Below, in pieces: positions 1-37,291 of a stretch of 64,000 nucleotides of DNA; the first letter of the stretch is position 1; every line of letters begins with the position of its first letter. Under the pieces are notes generated by a model that was given only the letters and a program-made list of their open reading frames with translations, made no database searches and was not told the origin of the DNA. The stretch covers positions 2,119 to 66,118 of the forward strand of contig JAZSIF010000058.1 in NCBI GenBank assembly GCA_045533675.1, written 5' to 3'. Source of the DNA: Eubacteriales bacterium (lineage in GTDB: Bacteria; Bacillota; Clostridia; Oscillospirales; CAG-272). A program made the translations under genes and the position numbers.

Positions 1-10
1 CCGTGTCACC

Positions 11-697
11 GTGATCGTTGCCGTTGTACTGGTCGCCGCCCTGACGCTCATCATCGGCATCACTGTTGCCACCAACCGTTCCAAGAAAAACGAGCTTCCT
101 CTACCCGATGACACAACCCCCTCCACGGACACGCCCGCAGACACCGAGCACAATGAGCCCGAAGACACGAAGCCCACAAAGCCCTCCGACACCCAGCCCC
201 AAAAGCCTGCCGACACGTCGGTTTCGGTAGACGATTCCCTCCCCTCCTTCGTGCTTCCGGTCAGCGGTGTTCTCTCCAAAAAGCACGACCCCGAGCTTCA
301 GGTTTATTCCGTAACCATGAATGATTACCGCGCCCACATCGGCGTAGATATCGTTACCGAAAAGAACGCGCCTGTCTATGCTGCCGCCGATGGCACCGTG
401 CAGAAGATCTGGAAGGACGTTCTCATGGGCTACTGTATCGCCGTACAACATAACGGCGACTGCCTGACTGTCTACAAGAATTTGGCGGAGACCCTGCCCG
501 ACGGCATCGCCGAAGGTGTTAAGGTGCGCTCGGGTCAGCTTATCGCCTCGGTTGGTGAAAGCGCCATGGTGGAGGTTGCCGAGGAACCCCATCTCCACTT
601 CGAAATGACCATTGAGGATTTGGCAGTAGACCCACTGGAGTATTTCAATGAAAAAGCCCTGGAGTCCCTGTCCATTGACGCGTCTTACGGGGAGTAA
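11..697 (+). CDS. M23 family metallopeptidase with N-terminal membrane anchor and Pro/Thr/Asp-rich linker (5' end may lie at or before the window edge)
   Basis: 228-aa ORF. C-terminal LytM/M23 signature HIGVDI ... EEPHLHFEM. Hydrophobic N-terminus IVAVVLVAALTLIIGITVA. GTG start at 11, with the frame open back to position 2. Confidence 0.8.
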   Translation: MIVAVVLVAALTLIIGITVATNRSKKNELPLPDDTTPSTDTPADTEHNEPEDTKPTKPSDTQPQKPADTSVSVDDSLPSFVLPVSGVLSKKHDPELQVYSVTMNDYRAHIGVDIVTEKNAPVYAAADGTVQKIWKDVLMGYCIAVQHNGDCLTVYKNLAETLPDGIAEGVKVRSGQLIASVGESAMVEVAEEPHLHFEMTIEDLAVDPLEYFNEKALESLSIDASYGE

Positions 698-698
698 T

Positions 699-985
699 GG
701 TTAGTTTAAGAAAAGGATTTTGACACTTTTGAAAAAGCTTGACAAAACTTTTATACAAAATTTTGTCTTATATCGCCTTTCTTGATTTAGTGTATCCTTT
801 ACCAATATTATTCTTTTCCAAGGAAGAAACCCGTCGGTGGCGAAGCAGCCATCCGACGGGTTTCTTCTTTAGAGAAAAACTTTAAGTTACACGGTACACC
901 ACATGTAGAACGCAATGTAAGAAAAAGCAAAAATTTGTATAAAAGTTTTGCCAAGCTTTTTTCAAAAAGCGACCCGCATCCCCAA
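699..985. repeat. Nested-palindrome intergenic repeat element, full copy 1
   Basis: Left arm 699-825 and right arm 865-985 are imperfect reverse complements (TTTTGAAAAAGCTTGACAAAACTTTTATACAAAATTT vs AAATTTGTATAAAAGTTTTGCCAAGCTTTTTTCAAAAA). They flank hairpin 826-864 (GAAACCCGTCGG-N15-CCGACGGGTTTC). The element fills the gap between convergent CDS ends at 697 and 1027. Confidence 0.8.
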
Positions 986-1026
986 TGTCATTAAGTTCAG
1001 AGAGGGGGCTTGATAATAAGATTTTC

Positions 1027-2475
1027 TTATTCCTCGGTAGGCTTTTCGGCGTTCTTCTTCGCCTTCTTTTTCTTGCCTACCTTGACGGCTGCCACGACAA
1101 TGCCCGACAGCGCGAACAGTGCCAGTACGTTGGGGATGACCATCAGGTTGTTGAACATATCGGTCAGCTCCCAAACCAGATCGTTGGGGAACATAGAGCC
1201 AAGGAAGATGAAGCCGATCGCCAGCACGGAGTAAACCGCGGTAGCCACCTTCTGTTTTTTACCAAACATATACTGAATGTTCTGTTTACCGAAGAAATTC
1301 CAACCAATGATGGTGGTAAAAGCGAAGAAGGTCAAGCATACGGCAATGGTAATATTACCGAAGATCGAACTGCCGAACGCAGTACCCACAGCGGTCTGCA
1401 TCAGGTTTGCCTTGGTCAGAGTGGTAGCGGCAAGGCCCTCTGCCGTACCGAGAGGTCCGTTTGCGTACAGGGTGGAAATGACCACCAGAGCGGTAATGGT
1501 GAGAACCACGAAGGTATCGATGAACACACCGACCATGGCAACCACACCCTGATCGTGAGGCTTCTCGACCTTTGCCTGCGCGTGTGCGTGAGGCGTCGAA
1601 CCCATACCCGCCTCGTTGGAGAAGAGTCCGCGCTTCGCGCCCTGGCTGATCGCCGCCTTGATTGCCGCACCGAACGCGCCGCCGAGAAGTGCCTGAGGAA
1701 CAAAGGCAAACTTAAAGATCATACCGAAGGTTGCGGGAATTGCCTTGAAGTTGATTCCAAGAACCACAAGACCCAAGAGGAGATAAACCACTGCCATAAT
1801 GGGAACGATCTTCTCGGCAACCGACGCGATTCTCTGTACGCCGCCCAGGAAAATGAAGGCGCAGATCGCAGCCAGCACCAGTCCGATGACCCAAGTGGGA
1901 ACTAAGCCCGAAGAAGCGGTGCTGATCGACTCGGAAATCGAGTTGGACTGAACCATGGCACCCATGAAGCCGAGAGCAAGAGTAATGGCAACAGCAAAGA
2001 AGCCTGCCAATGCCTTACCGAATTTGCCCTTGAAGGCACGGCGAATGTAGTACACGGGACCGCCGAGCACCGAGCCGTCCTCTTTGACGATTTTGGTCTC
2101 TTGTGCCAGCGTTGCCTCGGCGTAGATGGTTGCCATGCCGAAGAACGCAATAATCCACATCCAGAAAATGGCACCGGGTCCACCGATCAGGATTGCGCCG
2201 CAGGCACCGACGATGTTACCCGTACCGACCTGAGCGGCAATGGCGGTTGCCAGCGCCTGGAAGGACGAAAGTCCTCCCTTTTGCTTTCCTCCGCGGAGAG
2301 ACAGATTTCCAAACACCTTCTTCATGCCCTCGCCGAAACAGCGAATCTGCACGAAGCGGGTACGAATGGTGTAAAAGAGTCCTACACCCACCAAAAGGAT
2401 GAGCAGGATGTAGTCAGAAAGATACGCGTTGATCTTCTGAACAATGGGGAGCAAAAAGTCTGTTACTGCTTGCAT
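1027..2475 (-). CDS. Alanine/glycine:cation symporter (AGCS family)
   Basis: Translation from MQAVTDFLLPIVQKINAYLSDYILLILLVGVGLFYTIRTRFVQIRCFGEG is typical of the AGCS N-terminus and is polytopic throughout. ATG at 2475 is preceded by GGAGGG. I discard the 49 upstream codons of the track ORF. Confidence 0.9.
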   Translation of the reverse strand: MQAVTDFLLPIVQKINAYLSDYILLILLVGVGLFYTIRTRFVQIRCFGEGMKKVFGNLSLRGGKQKGGLSSFQALATAIAAQVGTGNIVGACGAILIGGPGAIFWMWIIAFFGMATIYAEATLAQETKIVKEDGSVLGGPVYYIRRAFKGKFGKALAGFFAVAITLALGFMGAMVQSNSISESISTASSGLVPTWVIGLVLAAICAFIFLGGVQRIASVAEKIVPIMAVVYLLLGLVVLGINFKAIPATFGMIFKFAFVPQALLGGAFGAAIKAAISQGAKRGLFSNEAGMGSTPHAHAQAKVEKPHDQGVVAMVGVFIDTFVVLTITALVVISTLYANGPLGTAEGLAATTLTKANLMQTAVGTAFGSSIFGNITIAVCLTFFAFTTIIGWNFFGKQNIQYMFGKKQKVATAVYSVLAIGFIFLGSMFPNDLVWELTDMFNNLMVIPNVLALFALSGIVVAAVKVGKKKKAKKNAEKPTEE

Positions 2476-2526
2476 AGAAGAGAACCCTCCTTGCCGCGCA
2501 CGGCGGCGATGAAATAAAATGAAAAC

Positions 2527-2690
2527 AAAAAAACCACTGAAAACATCAGTGGCTCCAAAGAGAAAACAATCGACGCCTTTTCTTGACGTCTCCTCTGTCC
2601 TTTTGCCTGAGAGATTCGGCATTTCTGCAAACGCCTTGCACCTTCGGCACTCTTACGAGATTCTCCAGAGCCCCTCCGCCTCCTGTTTCT
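2527..2690 (-). promoter_or_regulatory. Glycine riboswitch (single aptamer visible) with terminator expression platform, in the 5' leader of the AGCS symporter
   Basis: The minus strand reads CTCTGGAGAA (2661-2670), GCCGAAGGTGCAA (2636-2648) and CTCTCAGGCAAAAGGAC (2597-2613), the conserved glycine-aptamer core strings. A hairpin CCACTGATGTTTTCAGTGG (2534-2552) plus U7 (2527-2533) follows, upstream of the RBS. The gene context (Gly/Ala transporter) fits. Confidence 0.7.
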
Positions 2691-2879
2691 TGCGATCCAA
2701 AAGGCTTCAACGGTTTTCATATTTATGAAATTATTTTATCACACATTTCGACAAATTGCAATACATATTTTTTATAAAAAATACACATATTGATCACAGA
2801 TATTTGTGAACATTTCACAAACAATTTGTTATCTTTTTCCGTAATGTAAAAGAAAAGTCAAGTCTTTTCCCGAATTTAA

Positions 2880-2908
2880 TTGACAAACCCCTATCTTCGT
2901 GATATAAT
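2880..2908 (+). promoter_or_regulatory. Sigma-A type promoter of asnS
   Basis: TTGACA (2880-2885), 17-nt spacer, TATAAT (2903-2908), 49 nt upstream of the ATG at 2957. Confidence 0.6.
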
Positions 2909-2956
2909 AAACTATTGAATGAATTTCCGAAAACAGGAAAGGAACGGTTCGAAAAA

Positions 2957-4351
2957 ATGAAAAGAGATTTTGTAAGATCCATGTATGAAAATCCCGAGGC
3001 CTTTGGCGGCAAGACCGTCACCGTGGGCGGATGGGTCCGCAATCTGCGCGACAGTAAGGCATTCGGCTTTATCGACCTGAACGACGGCTCCTGCTTCAAG
3101 AGCATTCAGGTAGTATTTGAGCGTGAAAAGATCGCGAATTACGACGAGATCGCCCGTCAGAACGTAGGGGCATCCTTGATCGTGAAGGGCGTCATCGAGC
3201 TGACCCCAGGTATGAAGCAGCCCTTTGAGCTGAAAGCCACCGAAATCGCCATAGAGGGCACCTCGACTCCCGAATATCCCCTCCAGCCCAAGCGCCACTC
3301 GGTGGAATTTCTCCGCGAGCAGGCATATCTGCGTCCGAGAACCAATCTGTTCTCTGCCGCGTTCCGTGTTCGCAGTGAAGCGGCATTCGCCATTCACAAA
3401 TTTTTCCACGACCGTGGATTCGTTTACGTGCACACTCCTCTGATCACCGCCTCCGACTGCGAGGGCGCGGGTGAGATGTTCCGTGTGACCACCCTCGATC
3501 TGGACAACCCGCCCCGCAAGGAAGACGGCTCTATTGATTTCTCTCAGGACTTCTTCGGAAAGTCCGCCAACCTGACCGTTTCGGGTCAGCTGGAGGGCGA
3601 GACCTTTGCTCTCGCTTACGGAAAAATCTATACCTTCGGTCCGACCTTCCGTGCCGAGAACTCCAATACCGCCCGCCACGCGGCAGAGTTCTGGATGATC
3701 GAGCCTGAGATCGCCTTTGCCGATCTGGACGACAACATGGCACTGGCTTGGGATATGATCCAATATATTATCCGTCACGTCATGGAGACCTGTCCTCAGG
3801 AGATCGACTTCTTCAACAGCTTTGTGGAAAAGGGTCTCAAGGACCGTCTGACTACCCTCGCCAACAGCGAATACAAAAAGGTGACCTACACCGAGGCAGT
3901 GGACATTCTTCAAAAGAGCGGTGCCGACTTCAAATACCCCGTAGAGTGGGGCATCGATCTCCAGACCGAGCACGAGCGCTACCTGACCGAGCAGGTATTT
4001 AAGTGCCCCATCTTCGTGGTGGATTATCCCAAGGAGATCAAGGCGTTCTATATGCGCCTCAACGACGACGGAAAAACCGTTGCCGCCATGGACCTTCTCG
4101 TTCCCGGTGTGGGCGAGATCATCGGCGGCTCTCAGCGTGAGGAAAGAATCGACGTGCTCACCGCAAGAATGGCGGAGTGCGGTCTGAATGAAGAGGACTA
4201 CTGGTGGTATCTGAATCTCCGTCGCTACGGCGGCACTAAGCACGCGGGCTACGGTCTCGGATTTGAGCGCATCATTATGTACCTGACCGGTATTTCCAAC
4301 ATCCGTGATACCATCCCCTACCCCAGAACGGTTGGCAACGCGGAGTATTGA
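2957..4351 (+). CDS. asnS: Asparagine--tRNA ligase
   Basis: 464 aa from [13 protein letters not shown]-terminal OB-fold motif [21 protein letters not shown]. Class II motifs [21 protein letters not shown] and [28 protein letters not shown] lies upstream. Confidence 0.93.
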
Positions 4352-4722
4352 GTTAGGGAAGTTAGTTGAGAAAAGGATTTTTGGTCGCTTTTTGAAAAAA
4401 GCTCCGCAAAACTTTCATACAATGATTTTGCTTATATCACCTTTCTTGATTTGGTGTACCGTGTAAGATGATTGTTCTTTTTCAAGGTAGAAACCCGTCG
4501 GACGGCTGCTGCGCCACCGACGGGTTTCTATTCTTTTAGTTAAATTCAGAAATCCGTCGGGACGCAGCAGGGTCCGACGGATTTCTTCCTTAGAGAAAAA
4601 TATTCAGTTATACGGTACACCAAGTGTAGGACGTGATGTAAAACAAGCCATAAATTGTAAGAAAGTTTTGCCGCGCTTTTTCAAAAGCGGCCAAAAATCC
4701 TTTTCTTAACTAACTCCCCACC
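4352..4722. repeat. Nested-palindrome intergenic repeat element, full copy 2 (two central hairpins)
   Basis: Starts right after the asnS TGA with GTTAGGGAAGTTAGTTGAGAAAAGGATTTTT and ends CCAAAAATCCTTTTCTTAACTAAC just before the stop of the 4725 gene. Hairpins at 4490-4528 and 4549-4585. The arms are reverse-complementary to each other and homologous to copies 1, 3 and 4. Confidence 0.85.
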
Positions 4723-4724
4723 CA

Positions 4725-5834
4725 CTATTTCTTCTTCACCGTATACTTCTTATAGGTAGATTTCGCTCTGGCGCTTTGCTTGACCATGAGACCCAAGAGC
4801 TTGATCATATGGGATCGGGTAGTAGAATCCATGGTCCCCCAAATTTTGAGCAGCTTGATCTTTTCAATATTCAGGTCGGTCAGCGTTTTGGCTCCCGTCG
4901 CCATGATTGTCTCATAGAGGGAGTCTACAAACCTTTCCCGTTCGGCGGGCTTCATGCTCTTCATAAAGTCCTTGATGGCGGTATCGATCTGTCGGCTCTC
5001 CTCGCTGATGGTATCTAAATGGATAAAACGATTGCCAAGCACCTCCCAGGAAAAGGCATTGTGTTGCCATAAACCTTTTTCCGTACTTCTTATAACCTCA
5101 TAGCCTTCCTCATGCTCCAACAGGAGCCCCACGACCGATGATTGAGGCACAAAGGTACGGATCTTCCCTTTCATTTCCTTATATTCGGCGCTCCTAATAA
5201 ACTTCGAGTCGAAACCGGGGCCATCGTTGTTGTAGACCGCCGCAATACGGCTCTTTAATTCCTTGCGGCATTTGACGGCGGCATATACCGCAAGATTGCC
5301 GCCTTTGCTATGACCGCACAAGGTAAAAGCTCCCGTCTTCGCCTCTGCCATCCGTTCAAAGTAGGCAACCGCCTCTCGCTGGGCGGGCACGGGCTGCATA
5401 TAGCTCATATTAAAGTCCTCTTTCCAGCCCACAAGGGTATCGTCGGTCCCCCGGTATGCCAGAAAATAACGATCTTTGGATGAGAAAAAGGAAACGGCAC
5501 TGAATTGCAGCTCATCCTTCTGATTGATCCGATTTACGTATCCAAACAGCGACAACGCACCAAAACGGCGTGTTTTTGCCGCACGTACCATAAGGGTCAG
5601 CGTCTCGGGGGGCAGAATTTTTCCAAGATATGCTTTTTCCCCCTTATGGGCGCGCAGGTAGGTGCGGACAGCATCCATCATGGGGACACCTTCGGCATTT
5701 GGGTCGGAGGAAACGATTCCATCCAAATTCACGTAGCTGATTTGGGAAAGGATCAGCGCGTCCACCTCGTTCATAGGCGAGGCATCAAAGCTGAGATCTC
5801 CTCTCCATTCTAAATAATCAAAGAGATTGGTCAT
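4725..5834 (-). CDS. DUF2974 (Mbeg1-like) alpha/beta-hydrolase family protein
   Basis: 369 aa. Nucleophile-elbow motif CGHSKGGNLAVYAA. N-terminal DYLEWRGDLSF is characteristic of DUF2974, recalled from memory. Confidence 0.7.
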   Translation of the reverse strand: MTNLFDYLEWRGDLSFDASPMNEVDALILSQISYVNLDGIVSSDPNAEGVPMMDAVRTYLRAHKGEKAYLGKILPPETLTLMVRAAKTRRFGALSLFGYVNRINQKDELQFSAVSFFSSKDRYFLAYRGTDDTLVGWKEDFNMSYMQPVPAQREAVAYFERMAEAKTGAFTLCGHSKGGNLAVYAAVKCRKELKSRIAAVYNNDGPGFDSKFIRSAEYKEMKGKIRTFVPQSSVVGLLLEHEEGYEVIRSTEKGLWQHNAFSWEVLGNRFIHLDTISEESRQIDTAIKDFMKSMKPAERERFVDSLYETIMATGAKTLTDLNIEKIKLLKIWGTMDSTTRSHMIKLLGLMVKQSARAKSTYKKYTVKKK

Positions 5835-15904: not shown

Positions 15905-16007
15905 GATCAGTTCCTCCTTACCATTTTATATATATTATTATAAAGATAAAAGTCCATTATGTCAACAGAAAAACGATATTTTCTTAAGTTTCCCTCATAT
16001 AAAATAG

Positions 16008-16050
16008 AAAGGAATCCGTCGAGACATAGTCAAGTCCAACGGATTTCCAC
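16008..16050 (-). terminator. Intrinsic terminator downstream of dut (degenerate relative of the family hairpin)
   Basis: Minus strand reads GGAAATCCGTTGGACTTGACTATGTCTCGACGGATTCC followed by TTTCTATTTT. The stem shares the GAAATCCGT core with the repeat-family hairpin. Confidence 0.45.
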
Positions 16051-16108
16051 TTCAAAGAAAAACAGTAAGCATTACGACAAATTTCCTTTTTAAGCTAACT
16101 TCTCACTC

Positions 16109-16552
16109 TCAATTTCCCGTAGAGCCAAAGCCTCCCACACCGCGGACGGTATCCTCCAGCTCGTCGGAGAGAACAAAATCGGCAGCATAGTAGGGGGCAA
16201 ACACCATTTGGGCAATCCGCTCACCATGGGCAACGACCTGTGATATTGCGCTGTGGTTGTGAAGTGCCACCATGATCTCTCCCCGATAGTCACTGTCCAC
16301 CACCCCGACTTTATTGGCAGGCGCAAGACCCCGTTTGGAGGCAAGCCCACTGCGAGCATAGATGAGCCCCACAAGGCCCTCGGGGATTTCCATAGAAAGA
16401 CCCGTGTGAATCAAGAGCGTCTGCCCCGACTCAATCACAAGATCCCTGTCAGTACAGGCATAGAGATCGGCACCTGCGGAAAATTCAGATCCGTAGGTAG
16501 GGAGAATCGCATGTTCGGAAAGCTTTTTGACGCGCATGGAAAAATGGTTCAT
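16109..16552 (-). CDS. dut: dUTP diphosphatase
   Basis: 147 aa. GADLYA, ARSGLA, GVVDSDYRGEI and GGFGSTG motifs. Confidence 0.92.
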   Translation of the reverse strand: MNHFSMRVKKLSEHAILPTYGSEFSAGADLYACTDRDLVIESGQTLLIHTGLSMEIPEGLVGLIYARSGLASKRGLAPANKVGVVDSDYRGEIMVALHNHSAISQVVAHGERIAQMVFAPYYAADFVLSDELEDTVRGVGGFGSTGN

Positions 16553-21987: not shown

Positions 21988-22029
21988 GAACGCGCAAATC
22001 CTATTTTACGCTCTTTTTGTCCCCCATAT

Positions 22030-22135
22030 AAGTACTTATTATATACCGTCCTCGTGTTTGTGCACGATATGGGAATATTGTTTTTCTAAGGTAAAAGTCC
22101 GTCGGACGGCCGCTGCGCCGCTGACGGATTTTTTA
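22030..22135. repeat. Partial copy of the intergenic repeat family (inner left module plus degenerate hairpin)
   Basis: CCTCGTGTTTGTGCACGAT...TTTTTCTAAGG followed by hairpin AAAGTCCGTCGGACGGCCGCTGCGCCGCTGACGGATTTT (about 22093-22133). Homologous to 35290-35396 and to the inner parts of the full copies. Confidence 0.6.
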
Positions 22136-22178
22136 TGACGGGAGTCCAATAGCCCCCCTAATTGACATGGTATACTAA

Positions 22179-22223: not shown

Positions 22224-25200
22224 TTATTTGCTTACTTTTCTTTGGATCGCCTTACCGCCCGTCAGGGTGATCATCTTAATTGCCTGCACGGAGAAGGAAT
22301 CCGCTATTACAGTCAATGGCTTATCCAAATGTCCGTCTGCCAAAACCTTTACTCGTTGCGTCTTAGCGGAGATCAGCTTCTTTGCCTTCAAGGCATCGAG
22401 ATCCACCGTCTCTTCAGCATCAAACGTCTCATTGATTTCGGAGATATTGATGATGGACTTGAGTCCTGTCGCGTTGGCACCGCCCGCGGTTTTCAGAGCA
22501 GCCATTGCCACAGTATCCTCCATCATAGCATCTGCCGTATCCACATCAACCGTCTCTACCACTTCAACCACAGGTTCAGGTTCAGGTTCAAGTTCAGGTT
22601 CGGGTTCAGGCTCGGGTTCAGGCTCGGGTTCAGGCTCGGGTTCAGGCTCGGCCACCGGCACGATAATCACAGGTTCCTCAGCAACAGGTTCCGAGGTAAC
22701 GAATTCTTCCTCTCCCTCATCGTCCGCTACCGCCGCAACTACGGCTGCCGCCAGCTTGCGCGCGCGAATAACGAAGAAGTAGATGAAGGTCAAAACGATA
22801 AGGATGATGAGAATGAGGATCAACAGCCACCATACCCACCAAAGTCCAAACACCATCGCCCTCGTAGCCTCCGCTTGAGCATAGACCGTCAAGCTCTCGG
22901 CATTGTGGTCGGTGAGCACGTAGTCGCTCCACAGAACGTCATTCTCTCCCATTTCCACATACCACTCGTATCGATATCCCGATGCCTTACCCTTGAAATC
23001 GGGGATCGGCTTCTCGGTCTCGCAAGTTAGGGTCAAAACCTCCTCACTTCCGTCGGGATGCTTAAAGGTTACCGTGTATTCAATAGGAGCATAAACCGCC
23101 TTGACATTGATTCCCAACGCGCCGTTCTTGAGATCGTAAGCGCTCCACTCGACGAGTTTGCCCTCGCTGTCAACGACATACCATGCACCACGGTAGCCGA
23201 CCTTAGCGGGAAGCTCCACCGGTGTCCACGCATCAAGAACAGTATAGGTCTTTTCTATTTTGTCGTCTCCGATCACAAACGTAACCTTATACTGAATAGG
23301 TAGGATCTTTACGTACAGCTTTACGCTTGTTCCGCCCTTGACCAGCTCATACGCTGTAATCTGAGGGTCGGTGTCAGCGGGCGTGTCGCCTATCTGCACG
23401 AACCATGCCCCGTAGTAGCCCGCTTGGGTCACCTCAATCGAGGGAGGTGTAGGCACGCTGATCACGGTGCCGACTCTCTCCACAACGGTTCCGTCGGGAT
23501 AGGTAAAGGTGAAGGTATACTCCAGAGGAATCTGCTTTGCCTCTACCTCAATCGTGGCATCGGTATCGGTCAGCTGATAATTCTTCCACTCGACCTCACC
23601 CACATACCAACGGTATTCGTAACCGGGCGCGCAATCCGTAGGAAGATCCGCGGGAGTGAGAGGATCATTGATCGTGTAAGACTTCTCCACACGGCTTCCG
23701 TCGGGGAGAATAAAGTCCACGCGGTAGGATTTCGCCGTATAGACCACGTAGACCGTAACCTCGCGTTCACCGTCAATCAGACGATAATCCATCCACAAGG
23801 GGTCAGTGTCGGCAGGCGCCGTACCCATCTGCACGTACCATGCGCCCGTATAGAAGGGCTTGGCGGGTACATCGGGCTGGGTCTTCGTATCCTTGGTCAT
23901 GGTCAGAACGGTGGGGGTGTCGCCGATTCCAATAAACGTTACCGTATATTGGAGGTTGACAAATTCACCGAACACATCCACGTCACCCGTGGTCAGGCAA
24001 GCCTTGGTCCAGAGGACCTTTTGACCGTTGTCCATGTAGTACCAGCGGAACTCGGTGCCTGCGGGAGCCGTTACCGCGGGAATCTCAAAGGACTTGTCAA
24101 GGACCGTATAGGTCTTGGTGACAACATCCTCGGGAGCCGAACCGGGCAGGTGGAAGCGCACCTCGTACTCATCGATGGTCTTCCGAAGCTTAATCGTCAG
24201 ATCGGCAGGCGTTTGGTAATTGATTCCCTCCCACGTTGTGCCGAAGAGGTTGCACCAATCGTAAGTATAGCCGGACTCGGTCGGCAGGGTGGGAACAATA
24301 CCCGATACCATACCTTCAACCGTATAGATGACCTCCCCCATGAGATTGTCGTCCAGGTCCTTGAAGGTCAGGGTATACTCATGCGCCGTATAGGTGGGCA
24401 TGATGTTGATCCGTCTGTCAGCAGCAGTTGCCGTTTCAAGGTCAATGCCCAGATCAGAGAGGAAGGTAGCGGGATCGAAGCCCTGTGCGGTCAATGCGGG
24501 AGTGTCGCCATTTCCCGCGAAATACCAGCCCGCAAAGTCATAGTAATCGACCGAAGGAGGCAGGATCAGATCCACACTGGTTTCATTGCCGTACTCGTCT
24601 CTCTGATAGAAGCCAGCATAGGTATAGAAGTACTCGGCAAGCAGATTGCCGTCCTTATCGTACACGTAGAGTTTGTTGTCGTCTACCGCACGGCGAATCT
24701 CGGTAAAGGTCTTTTGGATGGTGTCCGCGTTGTCGTTGGTCAGCGTTTCGGGGAAGCTGTACTTTGCCCACTTGCCATCGGCATCCACGTAATACCATTC
24801 GTAGGTGTAGGAGCCAATCTCGTCACCGGTAGGCTCGTTCAGCATCCGGGTAAGCTCCGCGTAAACCTCCGGCCAGTTGTTGGCATTGTAAACCACGGTG
24901 ATTTCTCCCGCGGCACGGGTCGCGCGCAGAAGACTCATGGTTTGTATACGTTTCAGTGTCAGCGTGTAGTCAATGGCAACGCCATACTCGTAAACCGTAA
25001 AGTCACGAAGCTCGGAGGCATCGAAATCGGTCGCGGGATCCCACACCTCGCTTGCGCTGAACGTTCCGTCATTGTTTTTGTCAATGTACCAAACATATCT
25101 CGTATACAGCTTATTGTTCTCGCTCGTTACCTCATGCAAAGCGGGAACATTCTTGTTCGCCAGTGTTTCGGTATTGGCAAAGTAGCCAATCTCTTCGGGA

Positions 25201-28200
25201 GTTCCCGCCACGCCCGACACATTGTTCTTCAAGGGAACAAAGGTAATGGTATACTCGGGAAGCGCCTTCTTTTCCTCAACGAAGTCGAGGTTGCATAGCC
25301 ACTCGTTCGCCCCCGTTTCGAACTGATCGGGAGTCCATTCCACTCCGTTCTCATCTAACCAAACATGGGTATATCCCTCGGCGGGAGCAGTATGAATCGA
25401 ATTTACCCAGGCAACGAAAGCGCTTTCCACGGTCTCTGCCGTAACGGTGTATTTGCCCAGCTCGTTATAATTTTCGTCATAGAAGGTGTAAGTGTATTCC
25501 TTATACGTTCCATGCTCCTTCAAAGTAAAGCTCTTGGCGGGGTTGGCAGTAATGTTCTCAAATGCCGTCTCATATGTTCCGTTACCGTCCAGATCCGCAC
25601 GCCAGCTATAGATCATGGCAGCGGTGTCTTGCTGCATATAGCTACGGATCTGACTCAAAATATTTTGCCAGCTATCCCGCGACGTATAGGTCAGGATCTC
25701 ATTATCCTTATTGGATGCAAAGAAATCCAAGGTAATGGTATACTCGGTATATACCTTTCTCTCAAGAATTTCCACATTCTCTTCGAACCTGTGTTCGTTG
25801 AAAAATTTCTCCCAAGTCTTGCCGCCAAAATCCCATTCATAATGGAAGTCGGGATCGGGATCCGTCAACGCGGGAAGCGCAATGCCCGTGGCTACGGTAT
25901 TCTTGTCATAGGCAACCCTCTCCGTCGTTCCGTTCAGATAGCGGAACACAAAGTAATATGTTATGAGGTCGGCTTTTTCCCGAACCTCCAGATCCTTTGC
26001 CATGTTGAAATCAAAGGAATCTGTGGTTGCCGTAAAACGCTTGTTATCGGTCACGTTCCACCACATATGGGTGTAATGCTCCTCGGGAGCCGTAGGCAAA
26101 GCGGGAATGTAATCGGTTACCGCGTTTACCCAGTTCTCCACGGTATACTTTGCCTCCTGATAGAGGTTGCCATTCACATCATAGAAGGAGATCGTGTAAA
26201 CGAAGTAGGTCTTAATCTGCTCAAACACACCCAAGGAATCGAGCGCATTTGCGGGATTTTTCAAATAGCTCTTGATCCATGCAAGGTCACGAACCGTGCC
26301 CTCCAGAGCCCAATCGTACTTGTAGCCATGTCCTGGCGCATCGGTTTCGGGGATGGTCAGCGTATCAACGGTCTCTACGGTAAAGGGCACCTTGATGGTC
26401 TCATTCCCCTTCAAGAAGGTCAATTCGTAAGGAATAGTCTTATAGGTAACATACACAGTCTGAGACTGCGCCACACCGATCAATGCCTCGTAATCAGGCC
26501 ATACGACCTCATAACCGCGGATCCCATCGGGAGTCTTGGGCGCTCTGGGAAGCGCGGTATCACCCTCCTTATAAAGAATATTATCAAGCGTCCTCTCGCT
26601 TCCGTCGGGGGCTTTCAGTACGAAGATCATTTCATACTCATCCTCTTCCAAGGGAGGGGTCACAACGATGTCCATAGCGGGCATGGTCGCGGGAAGCCTG
26701 TCTTTGAAGCGTTCCAGATCCAATCCCGACACGCTCGTCAGAACATCAAGAGACATACCCGCGGGCAGGAGAAATACTTCTTCTCCGCCCTGACGGTCAT
26801 CCAGCGTCAAAGAGTAGAGCCCCCTAAAGGTCACTTCTGCGCTAAAGGTTCCCGACAGATCCGCCTTAAGCATTCCCGCGGGCAGCCCCAGCTTGGAGGA
26901 TACCTTGTCACCAAAATCAAAGTCATAGGATGCCGAGGGCAGGGTAAAGTGTCCCGCGCCGTCGTACATTTGGTAAATGCTAAAGGTTTTAATTCTTTCG
27001 GGCAATCTCTCCGCAAGAGCTTTCGCCTTGTCTGCCAACCGCTTCCAGCCGTCTACGGTACGAAGCTTTTCGAGAATAGCGTCTACACGGTCACGAGCAC
27101 CGTCGGGGAGTTTCTCCATAGCGCCGTCCGCTTTTTCCAGAACGGCATCCAGTTTTTCGTTGACTGCATCCGAAAGGGCTTGAAGCTCCTCATCGCTGAA
27201 GGTATCCAACATCCGCACCACTTCGGGCAGAGTCATGTTGGAAGCCTCCATCAGTTTCCCCTTCAAAGCGGCAGGCAGACGATTGGATTCCAGCACCCTG
27301 GCGTAGAGTGTCATAACCTTAGAGGGAAGCACAGAGCTGACGTGCAGGTCAAGGTCATCCTCGCCCACCTCCAGATGGAAGAGGTCCTTCTGGCTCCGTG
27401 CCAGCCTTTGCAGGTTTGTAAAGTCACCGTCGAAACAAATCTCAAAGCCCAGCTTTACATCACCGTCATTTCGGAAGGTGGTATGTAAAACCATGCCTAC
27501 GATAATGTCTCCCGATTCCATTTCGCAGAAGCGTTCCACATCGGGAATCGAAAGGAGCAGCGCGCGGACCGCCTCTTCCAGGTCAACGATACCGTTCTTA
27601 AATACCACGGAATCGTTAATCTTGATCGTTCCCACCTCTTCTACAACGATCTGCAGAAGGATCTGCTTGATATCAGCGGCAAAGCTCTTCAGCTTTGCTT
27701 TGTCTGCAATCACGTCACGAAGAAGGGTCTTTGCCAACTCCTTTGCGGCGGGAGAGGTCAGAAGTCCGTTGTCTTTTGCCAGCGCAAACAGCTTGTCGGT
27801 GCCGATCTTATTCGCGATCGCGGTAAGCTGCTCAGGGGTATACCAGCCAAGAATCACATCGTAACCGCCCGCCCAGTCCTTGATCTGGTCAAAGGTCACG
27901 TACTGCATCAAGAGATCGCCCAACTCATCAACCAAAAGTCCCTGGTCCAGCATGCCTGCCAAAGCCACAAGACCCGCGCTCTTCTTCTCTGCCTCGGTAG
28001 CATCGGGCTTTTCTACACCGCCGATGGCAATGGCGATCTGATCAAAGCTCAGGGTTCCATCGGAGATCAGCACCATCATACCCGATTTCTTGGAGGTGCC
28101 GTCGGTGGTAGCAAACAGGACGTCAATCAGCTCAATGGCACCAAGGCAGTCGAGGAACGGCACAATGCCCGTCTTCTCAATAATTTCGGAGGAATGAGGC

Positions 28201-30341
28201 ATCAGTATGTTGATAATCTCCTCATACTCCATTTCCTTGAATATCTCTTGATAATCCGAAGAGGTGAGATTCACCAACGCGGCCAAGTCACGGATTCGTT
28301 TCTCCTTGATAGCGGCTTCCTCCTCGGAGTCTCCCTCCTTGGGGTCGACCAGCTCATGGATCAGTCCCGACAGGTCCACTTTATCACTGGTAGCAACCAC
28401 CGTCAGATCCACATGCGCAAAGAAATCAATAGGGTCGATCTGACCTTGTTCGATTTGGTCGAGGAAGGATTCCTTTAACAGCTCCTTCACTCCGGCAACC
28501 GCCAGCGCATCCGTTGCCATGGCTGCCAGCTCTTCTCCGCTCAATCCAAGATCGGAAATCTTGATTCCGCTATCGGAGAGCACACGGCTCACATCCACCA
28601 AACCCTCATCGAGAATGTCATCCAGCTTGATGCCGTATGCGGAGAAATTCAAAATCTCCGAAACTTTAAGCGCGTCCTTGTTCGCAAGGAGCTGCTCCAA
28701 CGTAATGGAGCCAGGATACTTGTCGAGCAATTCGCCTACATCTACCAGATTGTTCGCCAGCAAAGTTTCCGGTGTAATACCCTTGTCCTGGGCAACTTCA
28801 GCCACCGTAATCAGTCCGTTGGCAAGCCATTCATCCAGAGTGTCCAACTCATGATCGCGGACTTTTTGCTTCTGCTCAGGTGTCAAAGCGTCAAACTTGC
28901 TTTCAAAATATGCCTCATCGATGCCGTACGCCGTGGCAACCGCATTTTTCTCGTCCGAAGTCATACCATTGTAAATGGTGGTAACATCCAGATCCAAAGA
29001 AGAAATATCGATCTCATTGACATTGAGATGCTTATTGGCGATCAATGCCGCTGCCGTAATCGCATTGTATTTCTTCAGAAAAGCAGAGAGTGTCTCCGTC
29101 GTGACCTCGGGCTTAACCGCATTGGTCAGAACCAACGTCTTGCCCTCAAGAAGCTTCGCCAGACGTGTATTATCCATGTACTTGGAAATACTGAACCCTT
29201 GGCTTCCTACCAGCTTGTCAACAATTTCCTTTGTGACAACCATGGAGGCAACGGTATAAAAGTCGGGATCCTCGATCAATCCATCGACCAGCCCTTCCGC
29301 CTCGAGCAGCTCCTTGACGACCGCATAGTCGTTTTTCTTTACCAAATCACGAAGCGCGTCCTCGCCAAAGATCTCAATCAGCTTTGCATTGGTCAGAACA
29401 TCCTTGCGATGTGTAAATATGTACTCTACCGTTTCCTCAGTCATCAGCCATTCGGGATGCTTCGCGACCTGTTCAAGAATTGCCTCGTTCTCGAGCAGCT
29501 TCTTTAACGGATTATCATCCGCAATCTCTTGTCCCTCTTCCGGAACAAAGGTCATCAAATAATCCTTAAGCTTTTCACGGAGAGACTCGTCGCTCATAAT
29601 TTTTTGCTTGATCTTGTCGCCAACCGCGTTCACCAGCGCATTCTTATACTGCTCATCGGACAGGATCGAACTCACCACCGAATCCGTCACCAAATTGGGG
29701 AGCGCCGCCATGACCTGGCTCTCATGCTCAGAAAGGAGACGATCAATGGCATCCGCCAACACGGCCTCCATAAACGACTCGTCGCGCAAAAGTCTTCCCT
29801 GCACCTCATCGGTCAAAAGATCCTTCAGCACGGGCGCGAGAAGCGCGTTCAATTCACGGTTGAATTTTTCCTCGTCCTCTACGCCGTCAAGGAGTGCGTC
29901 AAAATCCATCACCGCCAAGATTTCATCCAGCGTGACCAGCTTTTCTACAAACTCCGGGTTCAGGAAATACTTCGACAGAAGATTTTCGGGAAGCAAAGCC
30001 ACCAGCTCGTTGAGCTCCTCGGCGCTCAGATATTCGGAGACAAGCGTCAAAAACGTCTCCTTAGATGCGCCGTCCTCCAAGGCAGCCAGAACTTCCGCGG
30101 GGACAAAATCCTTTAGCTCCTCCTTTGTGAGATCGCCATCCGCCAATAAATCATACACCTTTTGGGGATTCAACTTCACCCGAAGAACTCCATCCTTGAA
30201 TTCGATGGTGTAATAGGGCGTTCCGTCTTCATCAGCCGCAGAGGACCCCACGGAAAAGGCACCTACGGGCAAGCAGATCGAAGCCAGCATGATTATCGCC
30301 ATCACAAACGGAAGAATTCGTTTCAGCAACAATTGTTTCAT
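22224..30341 (-). CDS. Giant (2705 aa) secreted, C-terminally membrane-anchored protein with about 16 Flg_new/InlB-B-type repeats and a cytoplasmic uL15-like tail
   Basis: Signal peptide MKQLLLKRILPFVMAIIMLASICLPVGAFSVGSSAA. About 1150 aa of acidic, Leu-rich sequence with no domain I recognise. About 16 repeats of pattern Y-x-[VL]-T-F ... G-Y-x-[FY]-x-[GAEW]-W-[YF]. TM segment MVFGLWWVWWLLILILIILIVLTFIYFFVI followed by RARK, then a 180-aa tail. RBS AGGAGA. Confidence 0.85.
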   Translation of the reverse strand: MKQLLLKRILPFVMAIIMLASICLPVGAFSVGSSAADEDGTPYYTIEFKDGVLRVKLNPQKVYDLLADGDLTKEELKDFVPAEVLAALEDGASKETFLTLVSEYLSAEELNELVALLPENLLSKYFLNPEFVEKLVTLDEILAVMDFDALLDGVEDEEKFNRELNALLAPVLKDLLTDEVQGRLLRDESFMEAVLADAIDRLLSEHESQVMAALPNLVTDSVVSSILSDEQYKNALVNAVGDKIKQKIMSDESLREKLKDYLMTFVPEEGQEIADDNPLKKLLENEAILEQVAKHPEWLMTEETVEYIFTHRKDVLTNAKLIEIFGEDALRDLVKKNDYAVVKELLEAEGLVDGLIEDPDFYTVASMVVTKEIVDKLVGSQGFSISKYMDNTRLAKLLEGKTLVLTNAVKPEVTTETLSAFLKKYNAITAAALIANKHLNVNEIDISSLDLDVTTIYNGMTSDEKNAVATAYGIDEAYFESKFDALTPEQKQKVRDHELDTLDEWLANGLITVAEVAQDKGITPETLLANNLVDVGELLDKYPGSITLEQLLANKDALKVSEILNFSAYGIKLDDILDEGLVDVSRVLSDSGIKISDLGLSGEELAAMATDALAVAGVKELLKESFLDQIEQGQIDPIDFFAHVDLTVVATSDKVDLSGLIHELVDPKEGDSEEEAAIKEKRIRDLAALVNLTSSDYQEIFKEMEYEEIINILMPHSSEIIEKTGIVPFLDCLGAIELIDVLFATTDGTSKKSGMMVLISDGTLSFDQIAIAIGGVEKPDATEAEKKSAGLVALAGMLDQGLLVDELGDLLMQYVTFDQIKDWAGGYDVILGWYTPEQLTAIANKIGTDKLFALAKDNGLLTSPAAKELAKTLLRDVIADKAKLKSFAADIKQILLQIVVEEVGTIKINDSVVFKNGIVDLEEAVRALLLSIPDVERFCEMESGDIIVGMVLHTTFRNDGDVKLGFEICFDGDFTNLQRLARSQKDLFHLEVGEDDLDLHVSSVLPSKVMTLYARVLESNRLPAALKGKLMEASNMTLPEVVRMLDTFSDEELQALSDAVNEKLDAVLEKADGAMEKLPDGARDRVDAILEKLRTVDGWKRLADKAKALAERLPERIKTFSIYQMYDGAGHFTLPSASYDFDFGDKVSSKLGLPAGMLKADLSGTFSAEVTFRGLYSLTLDDRQGGEEVFLLPAGMSLDVLTSVSGLDLERFKDRLPATMPAMDIVVTPPLEEDEYEMIFVLKAPDGSERTLDNILYKEGDTALPRAPKTPDGIRGYEVVWPDYEALIGVAQSQTVYVTYKTIPYELTFLKGNETIKVPFTVETVDTLTIPETDAPGHGYKYDWALEGTVRDLAWIKSYLKNPANALDSLGVFEQIKTYFVYTISFYDVNGNLYQEAKYTVENWVNAVTDYIPALPTAPEEHYTHMWWNVTDNKRFTATTDSFDFNMAKDLEVREKADLITYYFVFRYLNGTTERVAYDKNTVATGIALPALTDPDPDFHYEWDFGGKTWEKFFNEHRFEENVEILERKVYTEYTITLDFFASNKDNEILTYTSRDSWQNILSQIRSYMQQDTAAMIYSWRADLDGNGTYETAFENITANPAKSFTLKEHGTYKEYTYTFYDENYNELGKYTVTAETVESAFVAWVNSIHTAPAEGYTHVWLDENGVEWTPDQFETGANEWLCNLDFVEEKKALPEYTITFVPLKNNVSGVAGTPEEIGYFANTETLANKNVPALHEVTSENNKLYTRYVWYIDKNNDGTFSASEVWDPATDFDASELRDFTVYEYGVAIDYTLTLKRIQTMSLLRATRAAGEITVVYNANNWPEVYAELTRMLNEPTGDEIGSYTYEWYYVDADGKWAKYSFPETLTNDNADTIQKTFTEIRRAVDDNKLYVYDKDGNLLAEYFYTYAGFYQRDEYGNETSVDLILPPSVDYYDFAGWYFAGNGDTPALTAQGFDPATFLSDLGIDLETATAADRRINIMPTYTAHEYTLTFKDLDDNLMGEVIYTVEGMVSGIVPTLPTESGYTYDWCNLFGTTWEGINYQTPADLTIKLRKTIDEYEVRFHLPGSAPEDVVTKTYTVLDKSFEIPAVTAPAGTEFRWYYMDNGQKVLWTKACLTTGDVDVFGEFVNLQYTVTFIGIGDTPTVLTMTKDTKTQPDVPAKPFYTGAWYVQMGTAPADTDPLWMDYRLIDGEREVTVYVVYTAKSYRVDFILPDGSRVEKSYTINDPLTPADLPTDCAPGYEYRWYVGEVEWKNYQLTDTDATIEVEAKQIPLEYTFTFTYPDGTVVERVGTVISVPTPPSIEVTQAGYYGAWFVQIGDTPADTDPQITAYELVKGGTSVKLYVKILPIQYKVTFVIGDDKIEKTYTVLDAWTPVELPAKVGYRGAWYVVDSEGKLVEWSAYDLKNGALGINVKAVYAPIEYTVTFKHPDGSEEVLTLTCETEKPIPDFKGKASGYRYEWYVEMGENDVLWSDYVLTDHNAESLTVYAQAEATRAMVFGLWWVWWLLILILIILIVLTFIYFFVIRARKLAAAVVAAVADDEGEEEFVTSEPVAEEPVIIVPVAEPEPEPEPEPEPEPEPEPELEPEPEPVVEVVETVDVDTADAMMEDTVAMAALKTAGGANATGLKSIINISEINETFDAEETVDLDALKAKKLISAKTQRVKVLADGHLDKPLTVIADSFSVQAIKMITLTGGKAIQRKVSK
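22572..22649 (-). repeat. In-frame hexanucleotide tandem repeat encoding (EP)9-EL-(EP)3
   Basis: The plus strand reads GGTTCA/GGCTCG units repeated 13 times. It lies within the cytoplasmic tail of the giant protein. Confidence 0.9.
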
Positions 30342-35289: not shown

Positions 35290-35396
35290 TTATTAATCTT
35301 TGTGCACGATTCTCGTGTTTGTATACCCTGTAAGAATATCGTTTAACTCTTTGAAAGAAATCCGTCGGTGGCATAACAAGCCGTCCGACGGATTTC
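35290..35396. repeat. Partial copy of the intergenic repeat family (inner left module plus hairpin)
   Basis: TTTGTGCACGATTCTCGTGTTTGTATACCCTGTAAGAATATCG... followed by GAAATCCGTCGG-N16-CCGACGGATTTC (35357-35396). The hairpin ends 1 nt before the stop codon (35397-35399) of the convergent gene. Confidence 0.65.
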
Positions 35397-35882: not shown

Positions 35883-36009
35883 CCTATCCTCCATCAAGTT
35901 TCTTTGGTTCATTATACCACACTTTTCCCCTTTTGTGTGAAAAAAGTCATAAAAAACTTTTCCCCTTGATACAATGGTAACAAGTAGCCAAAACCGATGG
36001 AGGAAATCT

Positions 36010-36899: not shown

Positions 36900-37040
36900 C
36901 GTTTATTAAAAATTACACACGACAAAAAGAGACAAAAATTGCGAACAAGATGGGACAGAAAACATGAGCAAAAGGCTGTTTGTGCAAAATGCGGAAAATG
37001 AATTATTTTCAAAAACCTCTTGACAAAAATTCTCGGAAGG

Positions 37041-37279: not shown

Positions 37280-37291
37280 AAAAAAAATTAG

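Follow-up and report, generated by a model that had tools for sequence, protein, structure and literature searches.

What is the repeated unit that fills the gap at positions 4352 to 4722, and to what kind of element does it belong? An earlier note on the window (the whole 64-kb stretch of DNA analyzed here) had named this gap as one of eight intergenic loci with common modules, four of them full copies described as palindromes of 260 to 370 bp. The family was present where it had been placed, with homologous modules at all eight loci: 12 direct-repeat families and 25 inverted pairs from a repeat search of the window join them. Inverted arms measured 110 nt in copy 3 (36743-36852 and 37337-37446; 82% complementarity), 43 nt in copy 2 (4356-4398 and 4677-4719; 88%), and 39 nt in copy 1 (90%). 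An nhmmer search with an arm profile placed 12 arms in these eight loci, with E values of 1e-25 to 1e-49, and gave no other match of comparable strength in the window. A diagnostic 32-nt pattern, TTTTGAAAAAN{5,6}RCAAAACYTTNNTACAA, had seven matches in the window against 0.00 expected, and CCGTCGG-N8-30-CCGACGG had eight against 0.01 expected, every one within these loci. The best arm identities within the genome were 81 to 87%, and no near-identical copies were found among its arms. The claim of a genuine multicopy intergenic repeat family of the MITE/REP/BOX/ERIC type is supported, as are several accompanying ones: all four full copies wholly occupy gaps between convergent genes, the small palindrome at 36754-36773 exists, and no transposase or recombinase occurred among 40 window proteins scanned against Pfam. 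Nor is there a convincing open reading frame (ORF); ORF 36704-37102 has noncoding composition, and no consistent ORF was found in either orientation.

The palindrome is not the repeat unit, however. The unit is rather a single oriented arm of about 110 to 190 nt (typically about 170), noncoding, which lies in the sense direction of the upstream gene, starts 0 to 10 nt past its stop codon, and closes with a terminator hairpin. The modules run in the order outer, A core, variable B, TTTCTCTAAGGWAGAAA, and hairpin C with a U-rich tail. Outer modules come in two types, one stop-rich (GTTAGTTGAG..AAGGATTTTT) and the other a series of repeated G-rich 9-mers (GGGGAYGCG). The A core reads GCTTTTGAAAAAGC-N4-CAAAACTTT-N2-TACAAA, and B is a fast-evolving segment of about 55 nt. 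The outermost 20 to 60 nt vary among copies and genomes, and conservation is lowest at the very ends. At convergent genes, two arms would meet head-on with their hairpins shared or duplicated, and this meeting accounts for the "nested palindromes" of 260 to 720 bp. The full copies do consist of inverted arms as described, but in three of the four the halves are not identical, as the two B modules differ.

In the focal copy, arm 2L (4352-4537, plus strand) begins directly past the TGA stop of the AsnRS gene (4349-4351), with its outer module at 4352-4385 (GTTAGGGAAGTTAGTTGAGAAAAGGATTTTTGG), A core at 4386-4424, B at 4425-4477, and pre-C module plus hairpin C at 4478-4535 (hairpin core, 4495-4523). 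Arm 2R (4540-4724, minus strand) begins directly past the stop of a Mbeg1-like gene (4725-5834, minus strand), with its outer module at 4691-4724, A core at 4655-4690, B at 4600-4654, and hairpin C at 4542-4599 (core, 4554-4580). In copy 1, arm 1L (698-872, plus strand; A core, 727-758) follows an M23 peptidase gene (stop, 695-697), and arm 1R (819-991, minus strand; A core, 935-967), with a GGGGATGCG-type outer module, lies on the side of a Na:Ala symporter gene (1027-2622, minus strand). The hairpin at 823-868 is common to both arms, and the segment beside arm 1R (992-1026) may be the relic of an older terminator.

Copy 3 is interrupted. For arm 3L (36730-36908, plus strand; A core, 36754-36790; hairpin core, 36866-36894), the element end TAGTTAGTTGG provides, with its first TAG, the host stop codon at 36730-36732. 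Arm 3R (37283-37458, minus strand; A core, 37399-37430; hairpin core, 37297-37325) follows an EPSP_synthase-family gene (37456-38724, minus strand), the stop TAG lying inside the element end GGGAGTAGTTGGTTAG. Between the two hairpins is an AT-rich insert of 380 nt (36909-37282) that stands outside the repeat family and carries four TTTTCCAYA (DnaA-box-like) motifs (37041-37156) as well as a hairpin and T run of its own (37255-37279). A replication origin at this insert was rejected, there being no GC-skew switch. Copy 4 comprises arm 4L (62385-62524, plus strand; A core, 62416-62448), whose outer module AGTTAGTTAAGTAG forms the last four codons and stop of ORF 59138-62398, and arm 4R (62505-62656, minus strand; A core, about 62580-62615), which follows the CysRS gene (62657-63961, minus strand). 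The pre-C modules of the two overlap at 62505-62524. The location given earlier for this copy stood, but its start at 62399 did not, the true start being about 62385, inside the last codons of the ORF. Copy 4 (62385-62656) also has no GC hairpin in either arm, contrary to the claim of a central one in every full copy.

The remaining loci hold single arms. A decayed arm after the citrate synthase gene (21988-22140, plus strand) has a degenerate A core, then B and a variant hairpin C (CCGTCGG..CTGACGG, 22099-22127); it is real, as had been noted, but is a decayed full arm and not a partial copy at 22030-22135. A 5'-shortened arm with B and C only (35290-35404, plus strand; hairpin core, 35362-35391) lies directly past the SHMT stop. 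Two arms lie in gaps between tandem genes: one (40938-41066, minus strand) follows a metallo-beta-lactamase-fold gene (41064-41798, minus strand) and has an outer module (GGACGTAAGGATGCG), an A core, and hairpin C (40952-40980), with B deleted; the other (55479-55660, minus strand) is complete (GGACGCGAAGGTCGCG.. outer module; A core, 55596-55627; B; hairpin C, 55493-55521) and follows a GFO_IDH_MocA oxidoreductase gene (55661-56839, minus strand). We also found a ninth, degenerate locus after the dUTPase gene (16109-16552, minus strand), at 15998-16108 on the minus strand, with an outer-like module, a pre-C module, and a hairpin (16011-16048) and without A core and B. Including this locus, 13 arms cover some 2 kb, or about 3% of the window. 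The module combinations seen are A+B+C, B+C, A+C, and outer+C.

Arm placement is tied closely to gene ends. In 23 of 28 A-core arms (window plus related loci), a long sense ORF ends 17 to 66 nt short of the A-core T run. All eight arm pairs have A outside and C inside, and at least 11 of 12 single arms are in sense orientation, the exception being L009. Elements supply the stop or last codons themselves in arms 3L, 3R, 4L, and L010R and in L001, and the TGA within CTTTTGAAAAAG serves as the stop in L006b and L012. The outer module TAGTTAGTTGA has a stop codon in all three frames. TAG stops end 10 of 22 armed genes versus 4 of 34 unarmed genes in the window.

Hairpin C is the sole consensus structure that RNAalifold found in the arms. 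It has a GC-rich stem of 12 to 17 bp, a folding energy of -20 to -35 kcal/mol, and 5 to 8 U residues among the 10 nt that follow; the sense tail is the better one in single arms. This stem-loop with its U tract, always distal to the stop codon, is a predicted intrinsic terminator, which a simple terminator consensus scan missed because the loops exceed the limit of the scan. In the alignment, pairing is kept in 99.6% of cells, and both sides have changed in 6 of 12 pairs, a level of covariation reached by none of 500 shuffles; compensatory changes in a DNA palindrome can also come from hairpin-templated repair and not from selection on RNA. The suggestion of a structured-RNA family thus holds for the terminal hairpin and fails for the rest, where RNAalifold found no other consensus pair. 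B modules folded no more strongly than shuffles (mean z = -0.8), and a conserved RNA structure in B or in an extended A stem was unsupported by the RNAalifold consensus, the shuffles, and the alignment. Coding readings were rejected as well: small ORFs in B (such as MGYFTPRSTCGVP*, MAWGNIDSSSLCDG*, and MILLISPFLIWCTV*) have no SD sequence and an unconserved ATG, and 1-nt indels break their frame, while an antisense ORF across the A core (MKVLRSFFKSD..) is frameshifted by the varying length of T and A runs. Rfam returned nothing on the repeats at the gathering threshold over the whole window, in keeping with the earlier note, which recognized no named family in them; the sole match was a glycine riboswitch at 2585-2678. 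In E-value mode (4330-4740 and 36700-37480), all matches were far below gathering, the best having 26 bits against a gathering threshold of 86.

Next, we compared the arms with those of relatives, using 22 loci from a handful of metagenome-assembled genomes (MAGs), some of them picked by the A-core pattern itself. Pattern scans found 11 loci in three MAGs among genome contigs and one locus among metagenome contigs; three patterns gave no match in viral contigs, and blastn gave none in plasmids and phages. Exact look-ups of two window proteins found neither on record, which places the genome of the window outside the collections searched. Only a few uncultured Clostridia MAGs carry the family, and about 90 kb of more distant relatives (4-fold-site identity, 0.43 to 0.52) held no arms. 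Closer relatives have both filled and empty orthologous sites, the presence/absence polymorphism that the earlier note had proposed looking for. Arms fill the AsnRS gap in the window, L003, L020, and L021; the site is empty in L014 (AsnRS 96% identical in amino acids), whose gap of 46 nt holds an unrelated simple terminator in place of the 371-bp copy. The M23/symporter gap holds a double arm in the window and in L003 and is empty (43 nt) in L020, although AsnRS is followed by an arm there. The closest relative of an arm was not its ortholog, and we therefore rejected simple vertical descent with no conversion. At AsnRS 4-fold sites, L020 and L021 share 96.7% identity, yet their orthologous arms differ in 9-mer number, in the whole A-core allele, and in hairpin C; the differing A-core allele also occurs at other loci. 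Near-identical genomes show block swaps between copies.

The flanks of copies 1 to 4 had no direct repeat of 2 to 10 nt at the boundaries, and the filled/empty comparisons with L014 and L020 show replacement from stop to stop without a duplicated target. No transposase or parent IS occurred among the annotated genes of L013 to L022. Neither a target-site duplication, a cognate transposase, nor near-identical copies spoke for recent transposition.

With homology, modularity, orientation, stop-codon coupling, covariation of C, filled and empty sites, and block exchange established, we lean toward a lineage-restricted, nonautonomous, mosaic interspersed repeat whose unit is the arm and which supplies the 3' untranslated region (3'UTR) and terminator of many transcription units. 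The arm would be transcribed as the 3'UTR of the upstream gene, with transcription probably stopping at C, a putative, largely bidirectional intrinsic terminator. Arms may have spread as selfish DNA landing directly behind stop codons, some apparently bringing their own stop codon along. Copies would then have been reshuffled by ectopic gene conversion, while selection presumably retained the terminator part. This is a new family within a known kind of bacterial interspersed repeat; as a system it is not of a new type.

Copy 4 persists although it has no hairpin C, and neither a purely selfish role nor termination alone explains the conservation of the A core. The core (37 nt) is much better conserved than its surroundings both within and between genomes. 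It is kept as sequence across at least four MAG lineages whereas B decays, and its palindrome is conserved in sequence without a covarying stem. The strongest competing explanation, which we nonetheless regard as unlikely, is that the arms are functional 3'UTR elements genome-wide and that the A core is bound or processed by a trans-acting RNA-binding protein or RNase setting the stability or translation of many housekeeping mRNAs. The GGA-rich outer repeats (two to six A/G-GGA motifs per arm) and an SD-like UAAGGWAG would possibly be part of the site, and spread would be secondary. The strict sense orientation and fixed closeness to stops agree with such a role, as do the minimal versions L012 and 40938-41066, which keep A plus the terminator. 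Close relatives, however, lack the element at the same genes, the host genes share no functional theme (Pfam scan of window proteins), and no candidate binding protein was found. Variants without A persist (35290-35404 and 15998-16108), and gene conversion could equally explain the conservation of A. Somewhat less likely still is the broader idea that the A core is the recognition site of a dedicated trans-acting factor and that the arms are more than decaying selfish terminators. That factor might be a new mobilization or conversion machinery setting sense cassettes precisely behind stops without target duplication, or it might be a global RNA-binding or processing system with a shared 3'UTR tag on many housekeeping mRNAs. 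To our knowledge, the A core matches no attC, dif, parS, CodY, cre, or DnaA-box site.

We consider it improbable that the arms are sRNA genes, with A as promoter, B as a variable body of about 60 nt, and C as terminator, yielding sRNAs of about 110 nt with diverse targeting. The layout of conserved 5' module, variable middle, and conserved terminator would suit such genes, the A core contains TTGAAA and TACAAA hexamers, and L009 and L010L have no sense gene upstream. Yet a sigma-70 scan found no promoter in any A module, whereas true promoters in the neighborhood have canonical hexamers (TTGACA-17-TATAAT at 2880 and TTGACA-17-TACAAT in L004). A promoter in A was rejected both on the quality of the hexamers, the -10-like one being without its final T, and on their spacing, which is 19 to 21 nt (16 to 18 nt expected) and differs from one A-core allele to another. 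We know of no sporulation-sigma or sigma-H consensus that fits the A core. B has no conserved structure or Rfam match, and the exact start of arms at stop codons would go unexplained. Slightly more doubtful again is a role at the DNA level, in which the phased A/T tracts of the A core and the GC palindrome C would be bound by proteins or adopt special structures between transcription units. Gyrase, a nucleoid protein, a cruciform, and an uptake signal are examples of what such sites might serve, as has been suggested for Escherichia coli BIMEs and Neisseria DUS pairs. In its favor are the enrichment in convergent gaps, where supercoils meet, and the sequence conservation of two tract palindromes in the A core (T4-5 G A5-6 and A4-5 C T3-4) and of the stem CCGTCGG/CCGACGG, but a DNA site needs neither gene orientation nor stop-codon adjacency, the arms show no strand bias relative to replication (6 plus versus 6 minus, or 7 with 15998-16108, in a window of uniform GC skew), and, unlike uptake sequences, the modules are absent from gene interiors in a profile search of the window.

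If the mosaic-repeat reading is right, one homologous cassette appears to provide the 3' flank and terminator at 13 gene ends in 64 kb of an uncultured gut/rumen Clostridia clade, making up about 3% of the DNA. This would be a clear case of mobile or mosaic repeats serving as terminators beyond a few model species. A profile of the arm lets annotators mark gene ends and terminators, and the arms account for poor MAG assembly in the clade, with several contigs (L001, L003, L008, and L011, for example) ending inside them. On present evidence the family does not reveal a new class of system.

Among known systems, an integron attC site was rejected, as the ends GTTAGTT ... AACTAAC are in the opposite order with one mismatch each and the host genes are housekeeping genes, convergent, with their own promoters. 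REP and BIME elements, which reach hundreds of copies per genome, resemble the arms in their GC-rich imperfect palindromes of about 35 to 45 nt at the 3' ends of transcription units, arranged in mosaics and commonly in inverted doublets, and module C with its mosaic of linkers corresponds to their palindrome. The arms differ in the U tails of hairpin C, which are in true intrinsic terminator style, and in the long A and B modules, which have no known REP counterpart; REPs are also not known to be anchored to stops. GTAG occurs in GGGAGTAGTT ends and not beside hairpin C, and no RAYT gene was seen in the window, unlike in REP/REPIN-RAYT systems.

Classical MITEs (Correia/NEMIS, RUP, and ERIC; PMC3184786 and PMC10969869) are likewise small, noncoding, multicopy, and intergenic; they show insertion polymorphism, and their inverted arms would form a long hairpin on read-through; terminal inverted repeats and presence/absence polymorphism are found here too. 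A classical MITE in the sense of the earlier comparison is nevertheless not supported, given the missing target-site duplication and the poorly conserved termini, and single orientation-specific arms are common and no related IS or transposase was found (window plus L013 to L022). Streptococcal BOX elements (boxA-boxB-boxC) are composite, noncoding, and strain variable, with modules absent or multiplied and terminal modules that pair. A BOX is one A-B-C unit with complementary ends and is not known to be tied to stop codons, whereas the arms are oriented and terminator ended, and palindromes here arise from two arms; the part that varies in number is the 9-mer outer repeat and not a 45-nt boxB. 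SPRITE, proposed in 2011 as mobile DNA co-opted as terminators (PMC3049150), has no sequence relationship that we could see, and for it as for BOX the likeness is one of architecture only. The arms have an extra 110 to 130 nt (outer, A, and B) upstream of the hairpin, begin at the stop codon, often form head-to-head pairs, and reside in uncultured Clostridia. With SPRITE they share an interspersed distribution, a long stem followed by a U-rich tract, and a strong enrichment near the 3' ends of coding sequences and in the gaps between convergent genes.

The repeats of the window are real and make up a new, well-delimited family within a known kind of element. A whole-window repeat search bore out an earlier note that had reported shared modules at eight intergenic loci, with 12 families of direct repeats and 25 inverted pairs linking these loci. 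The 12 individual arms align to a clear consensus about 185 nt long, and an nhmmer profile of this alignment recovered the same 12 arms at E values of 1e-25 to 1e-49, with no comparable match elsewhere in the window. Sub-profiles of three arm parts detected no isolated modules in the window except in a degenerate, previously unlisted arm at 15998-16108, behind the dUTPase gene, which has an outer-like GAGAAGTTAGCTTAAAAAGGAAATTTGTCG, a pre-C segment, and a hairpin (16011-16048) and is without A core and B. In the window, the diagnostic pattern TTTTGAAAAAN{5,6}RCAAAACYTTNNTACAA occurs 7 times (0.00 expected) and the hairpin pattern CCGTCGG-N8-30-CCGACGG 8 times (0.01 expected), all of the latter within the listed loci. 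The locus at 22030, described before as a partial copy, is instead a decayed full arm (21988-22140).

The unit itself had been taken for a palindrome; it is an oriented arm. Read away from the adjacent gene, every arm has the same order: stop codon, outer module, A core, B, pre-C, hairpin C, and U-rich tail. The outer module is either (GGGG)AGTAGTTAGTTGAG-AAAGGATTTTT, in which TAGTTAGTTGA gives a stop codon in all three frames, or 2 to 6 tandem G-rich 9-mers, GGGGAYGCG (GGGGAACGG in the related locus L009). The A core reads (G)GTCGC-TTTT(T)GAAAAA(A)GC-N4-CAAAAC-TTT-N2-TACAAA. The B module (about 55 nt) is variable with a semiconserved core (CGTTCTACAnnTGGTGTACCGTGTAAC in most window copies, TYCTCGTCWTTGTGTA elsewhere), pre-C is TTTCTCTAAGGWAGAAA, and hairpin C is GAAAYCCGTCGG-loop-CCGACGGRTTTC, followed by the U-rich tail. 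Nested palindromes result from two arms facing each other behind convergent genes, as in full copies 1 to 4 (699-985, 4352-4722, 36733-37455, and 62399-62656). The paired arms have one hairpin C in common in copy 1, keep two in copies 2 and 3, and have lost it in copy 4, which thus departs from the earlier description of a central GC hairpin in every full copy and truly starts at about 62385, within the last codons of the upstream ORF. Deletion variants retain B and C at 35290, A and C at 40938, and the outer module and C at 15998; in a relative (L012), an A core is joined to an unrelated terminator.

The tandem 9-mers (GGGGACGCG) lie between stop codon and A core in the related loci L001, L004, L006, L007, L011, L020, and L021 and in the window at 55628-55660 and 41040-41063. 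Their copy number differs even between the near-identical genomes L020 and L021, and the ORF of L006b runs in frame through them (..EDAGDAGDAG..). Such 9-mers could form G-quadruplexes or GGA-motif binding sites.

Arms are closely coupled to gene ends. Of 28 arms with an A core in the window and related loci, 23 follow a long sense ORF that stops 17 to 66 nt before the A-core T run; repeat sequence begins 0 to 10 nt past the stop codon. The element's own TAG is the host stop codon in both arms of copy 3, L010R, and L001; the left arm of copy 4 encodes the last four codons (K-L-V-K) of the upstream ORF, and the ORFs of L006b and L012 stop at a TGA within CTTTTGAAAAAG. Of 22 armed genes, 10 end in TAG, compared with only 4 of the 34 window genes that have no arm. 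All eight arm pairs have A outside and C inside, and at least 11 of 12 single arms lie in sense orientation (binomial P of about 0.003), L009 being the exception. The armed genes have ordinary housekeeping roles and no functional theme in common; they include those for M23 peptidase, the Na:Ala symporter, AsnRS, citrate synthase, SHMT, an EPSP-synthase-family enzyme, CysRS, and dUTPase. A scan of 40 window proteins revealed no transposase or recombinase, in agreement with the earlier note. At the M23 peptidase gene (window stop codon, 695-697), the last codons are GGG GAG TAA/TAG at filled sites (window and L003), near the element-end consensus GGGGAGTAG, and GGA GAA TAA, for the same amino acids, at the empty site of L020. 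The match may be a hint of insertion or conversion guided by microhomology, or a coincidence.

Hairpin C was the sole structure returned by RNAalifold from 20 complete arms. It pairs in 99.6% of cells, with both-side changes in 6 of 12 pairs (20 cells); none of 500 shuffles reached this level, and slid controls paired at 35 to 61%. Its folding energies (-20 to -35 kcal/mol) and the 5 to 8 U in the next 10 nt in both directions fit a largely bidirectional intrinsic terminator; in single arms the better U tail is the sense-direction one. The hairpins escaped a simple consensus terminator scan only because of loops longer than the scan allows. The B module was not more structured than shuffled sequence (mean z = -0.8), and the A palindrome GCTTTTGAAAAAGC is conserved at the sequence level; a longer A stem occurs in only a few copies (the 55479 arm, the right arms of copies 2 and 4, and the left arm of copy 3) and is missing from the commonest allele.

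In copy 3, the two terminator hairpins are separated by a 380-nt AT-rich insert (36909-37282) that holds four of the six TTTTCCAYA (DnaA-box-like) motifs of the window within 115 nt (37041-37156), a promoter-like site (37183-37211), and, at 37255-37279, a hairpin of its own with a T run. The insert has no GC-skew switch and is not repeated elsewhere; it could represent a cluster of DnaA boxes or a gene for a small RNA. Also in the window, a (CAGGTT)n tandem repeat (22559-22654) inside a 2705-aa ORF (22224-30341, minus strand) probably encodes a Pro/Glu-type linker in a giant surface protein, and the neighboring gene at 35974-36732 encodes Big_9/cadherin-like domains.

A search of 185,579 species representatives found the exact A-core pattern in only 11 contigs from three MAGs (Clostridia bacterium RGIG5324 from sheep colon, Eubacteriales bacterium SGB_7928, and Clostridia bacterium HGM12660); one JGI metagenome contig also carries it. 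By its AsnRS homologues, the window falls among MAGs labelled Ruminococcaceae/Oscillospiraceae. The presence/absence polymorphism suggested earlier as a check was found at orthologous sites in relatives, as filled and empty gaps. L003 (RGIG5324; AsnRS 4-fold-site identity to the window, 0.68) is syntenic with window positions 1-4351 and has arms behind M23 peptidase and AsnRS, and L006 from the same MAG has an arm orthologous to the left arm of copy 3. L014 (0.635) has a 46-nt unrelated simple terminator in place of the window's 371-bp copy, and L020 (0.60) has an arm behind AsnRS and an empty M23/symporter gap of 43 nt. L013, L015 to L019, and L022 (0.43 to 0.52, measured for L013, L015, and L018 only) have no arms in about 90 kb, with only a C-like hairpin in L018/L019. 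The family is therefore confined to a shallow clade in which sites turn over. No target-site duplication is visible. An A run plus TATCAAGC beside the symporter stop at the M23 site is a possible relic of an ancestral terminator and, if so, would weakly suggest insertion of the pair immediately after the stop codon of the M23 gene.

Arm copies group by genome, not by orthologous position. Between L020 and L021 (AsnRS 98.2% identical, 96.7% at 4-fold sites), orthologous arms differ by a 9-mer indel, a different hairpin C, and a swap of the whole A-core allele (GTCGCTTTTGAAAAAGCTCCGCAAAAC versus TACGCTTTTTGAAAAAAGCTTGGCAAAAAC), both alleles being found at other loci. Judged from these sequences, the block differences are the signature of ectopic gene conversion among copies, which would account for the mosaic appearance of the arms and, in part, for A-core "conservation." MAG contigs L001, L003, L008, L011, and L021 break off within an arm. 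The repeat is therefore a probable major source of broken assemblies in the clade, and MAGs understate its copy number. Other nested palindromic repeat families also occur in the relatives (L010, 5392-5550; L020, about 4049-4250; next to arms in L002, L005, and L006). One, with a roughly 33-bp inverted end TATAACGGGGCGTCGAGGACGTCGCCCCCTAC, replaced a C hairpin in L010, and another is bounded by CGCGGTAGGGGAGGGGC...GCCCCTCCCCTACCG.

Several identities were rejected. Rfam at the gathering threshold returned only a glycine riboswitch from the whole window, and two copies searched in E-value mode gave only noise far below threshold. The riboswitch aptamer (RF00504, 54.8 bits; 2585-2678, minus strand) lies upstream of the Na:Ala symporter gene (1027-2622, minus strand), an ordinary arrangement. 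As a canonical promoter, A offers at best TTGAAA and TACAAA, 19 to 21 nt apart and missing the final T, with a spacing that changes between A-core alleles; textbook promoters occur nearby (TTGACA-17-TATAAT before AsnRS at 2880 and TTGACA-17-TACAAT in L004). Indels between copies disrupt the small ORFs of B as well as an antisense ORF running through A, and an attC site is contradicted by the order of core sites and by the non-cassette host genes. No arms were found on plasmids, phages, or viral contigs.

Taken whole, with somewhat better than even confidence, we read the arms as a terminator-supplying, gene-converted, non-autonomous repeat, building on the observed homology, modularity, orientation, stop-codon coupling, C covariation, filled and empty sites, and block exchange. 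The arm would be transcribed as the 3'UTR of the upstream gene, as no terminator-like feature lies between stop codon and C. Hairpin C would end transcription in both directions, and the three-frame stop module may curb read-through translation when an element inserts within an ORF or at its end. Copies would have spread as non-autonomous DNA and been homogenized by gene conversion, with selection presumably retaining the terminator and A and B being dispensable in some copies. A sequence-specific 3'UTR regulatory tag centered on the A core is an unlikely alternative that still deserves some weight. Independent sRNA genes are improbable, and a structural or binding site at the DNA level is marginally less probable still.

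We found no published description of the family in the literature searched. Its unusual features are the precise sense-orientation placement behind stop codons, the stop-rich or G-rich 9-mer outer module, and the very conserved, non-structural A core; these do not alone establish a new type of system and merit experimental follow-up. Unlike classical MITEs, the arms lack target-site duplications and conserved termini. With E. coli REP/BIME they share a mosaic arrangement and the presence of GC palindromes at transcription-unit 3' ends, and with BOX elements a modular make-up (PMC3049150). By architecture and genomic behavior, the nearest analogue is the pneumococcal SPRITE, a terminator-like interspersed repeat that lies near CDS 3' ends, has its strongest enrichment between convergent genes, and has been proposed as a co-opted terminator (PMC3049150).
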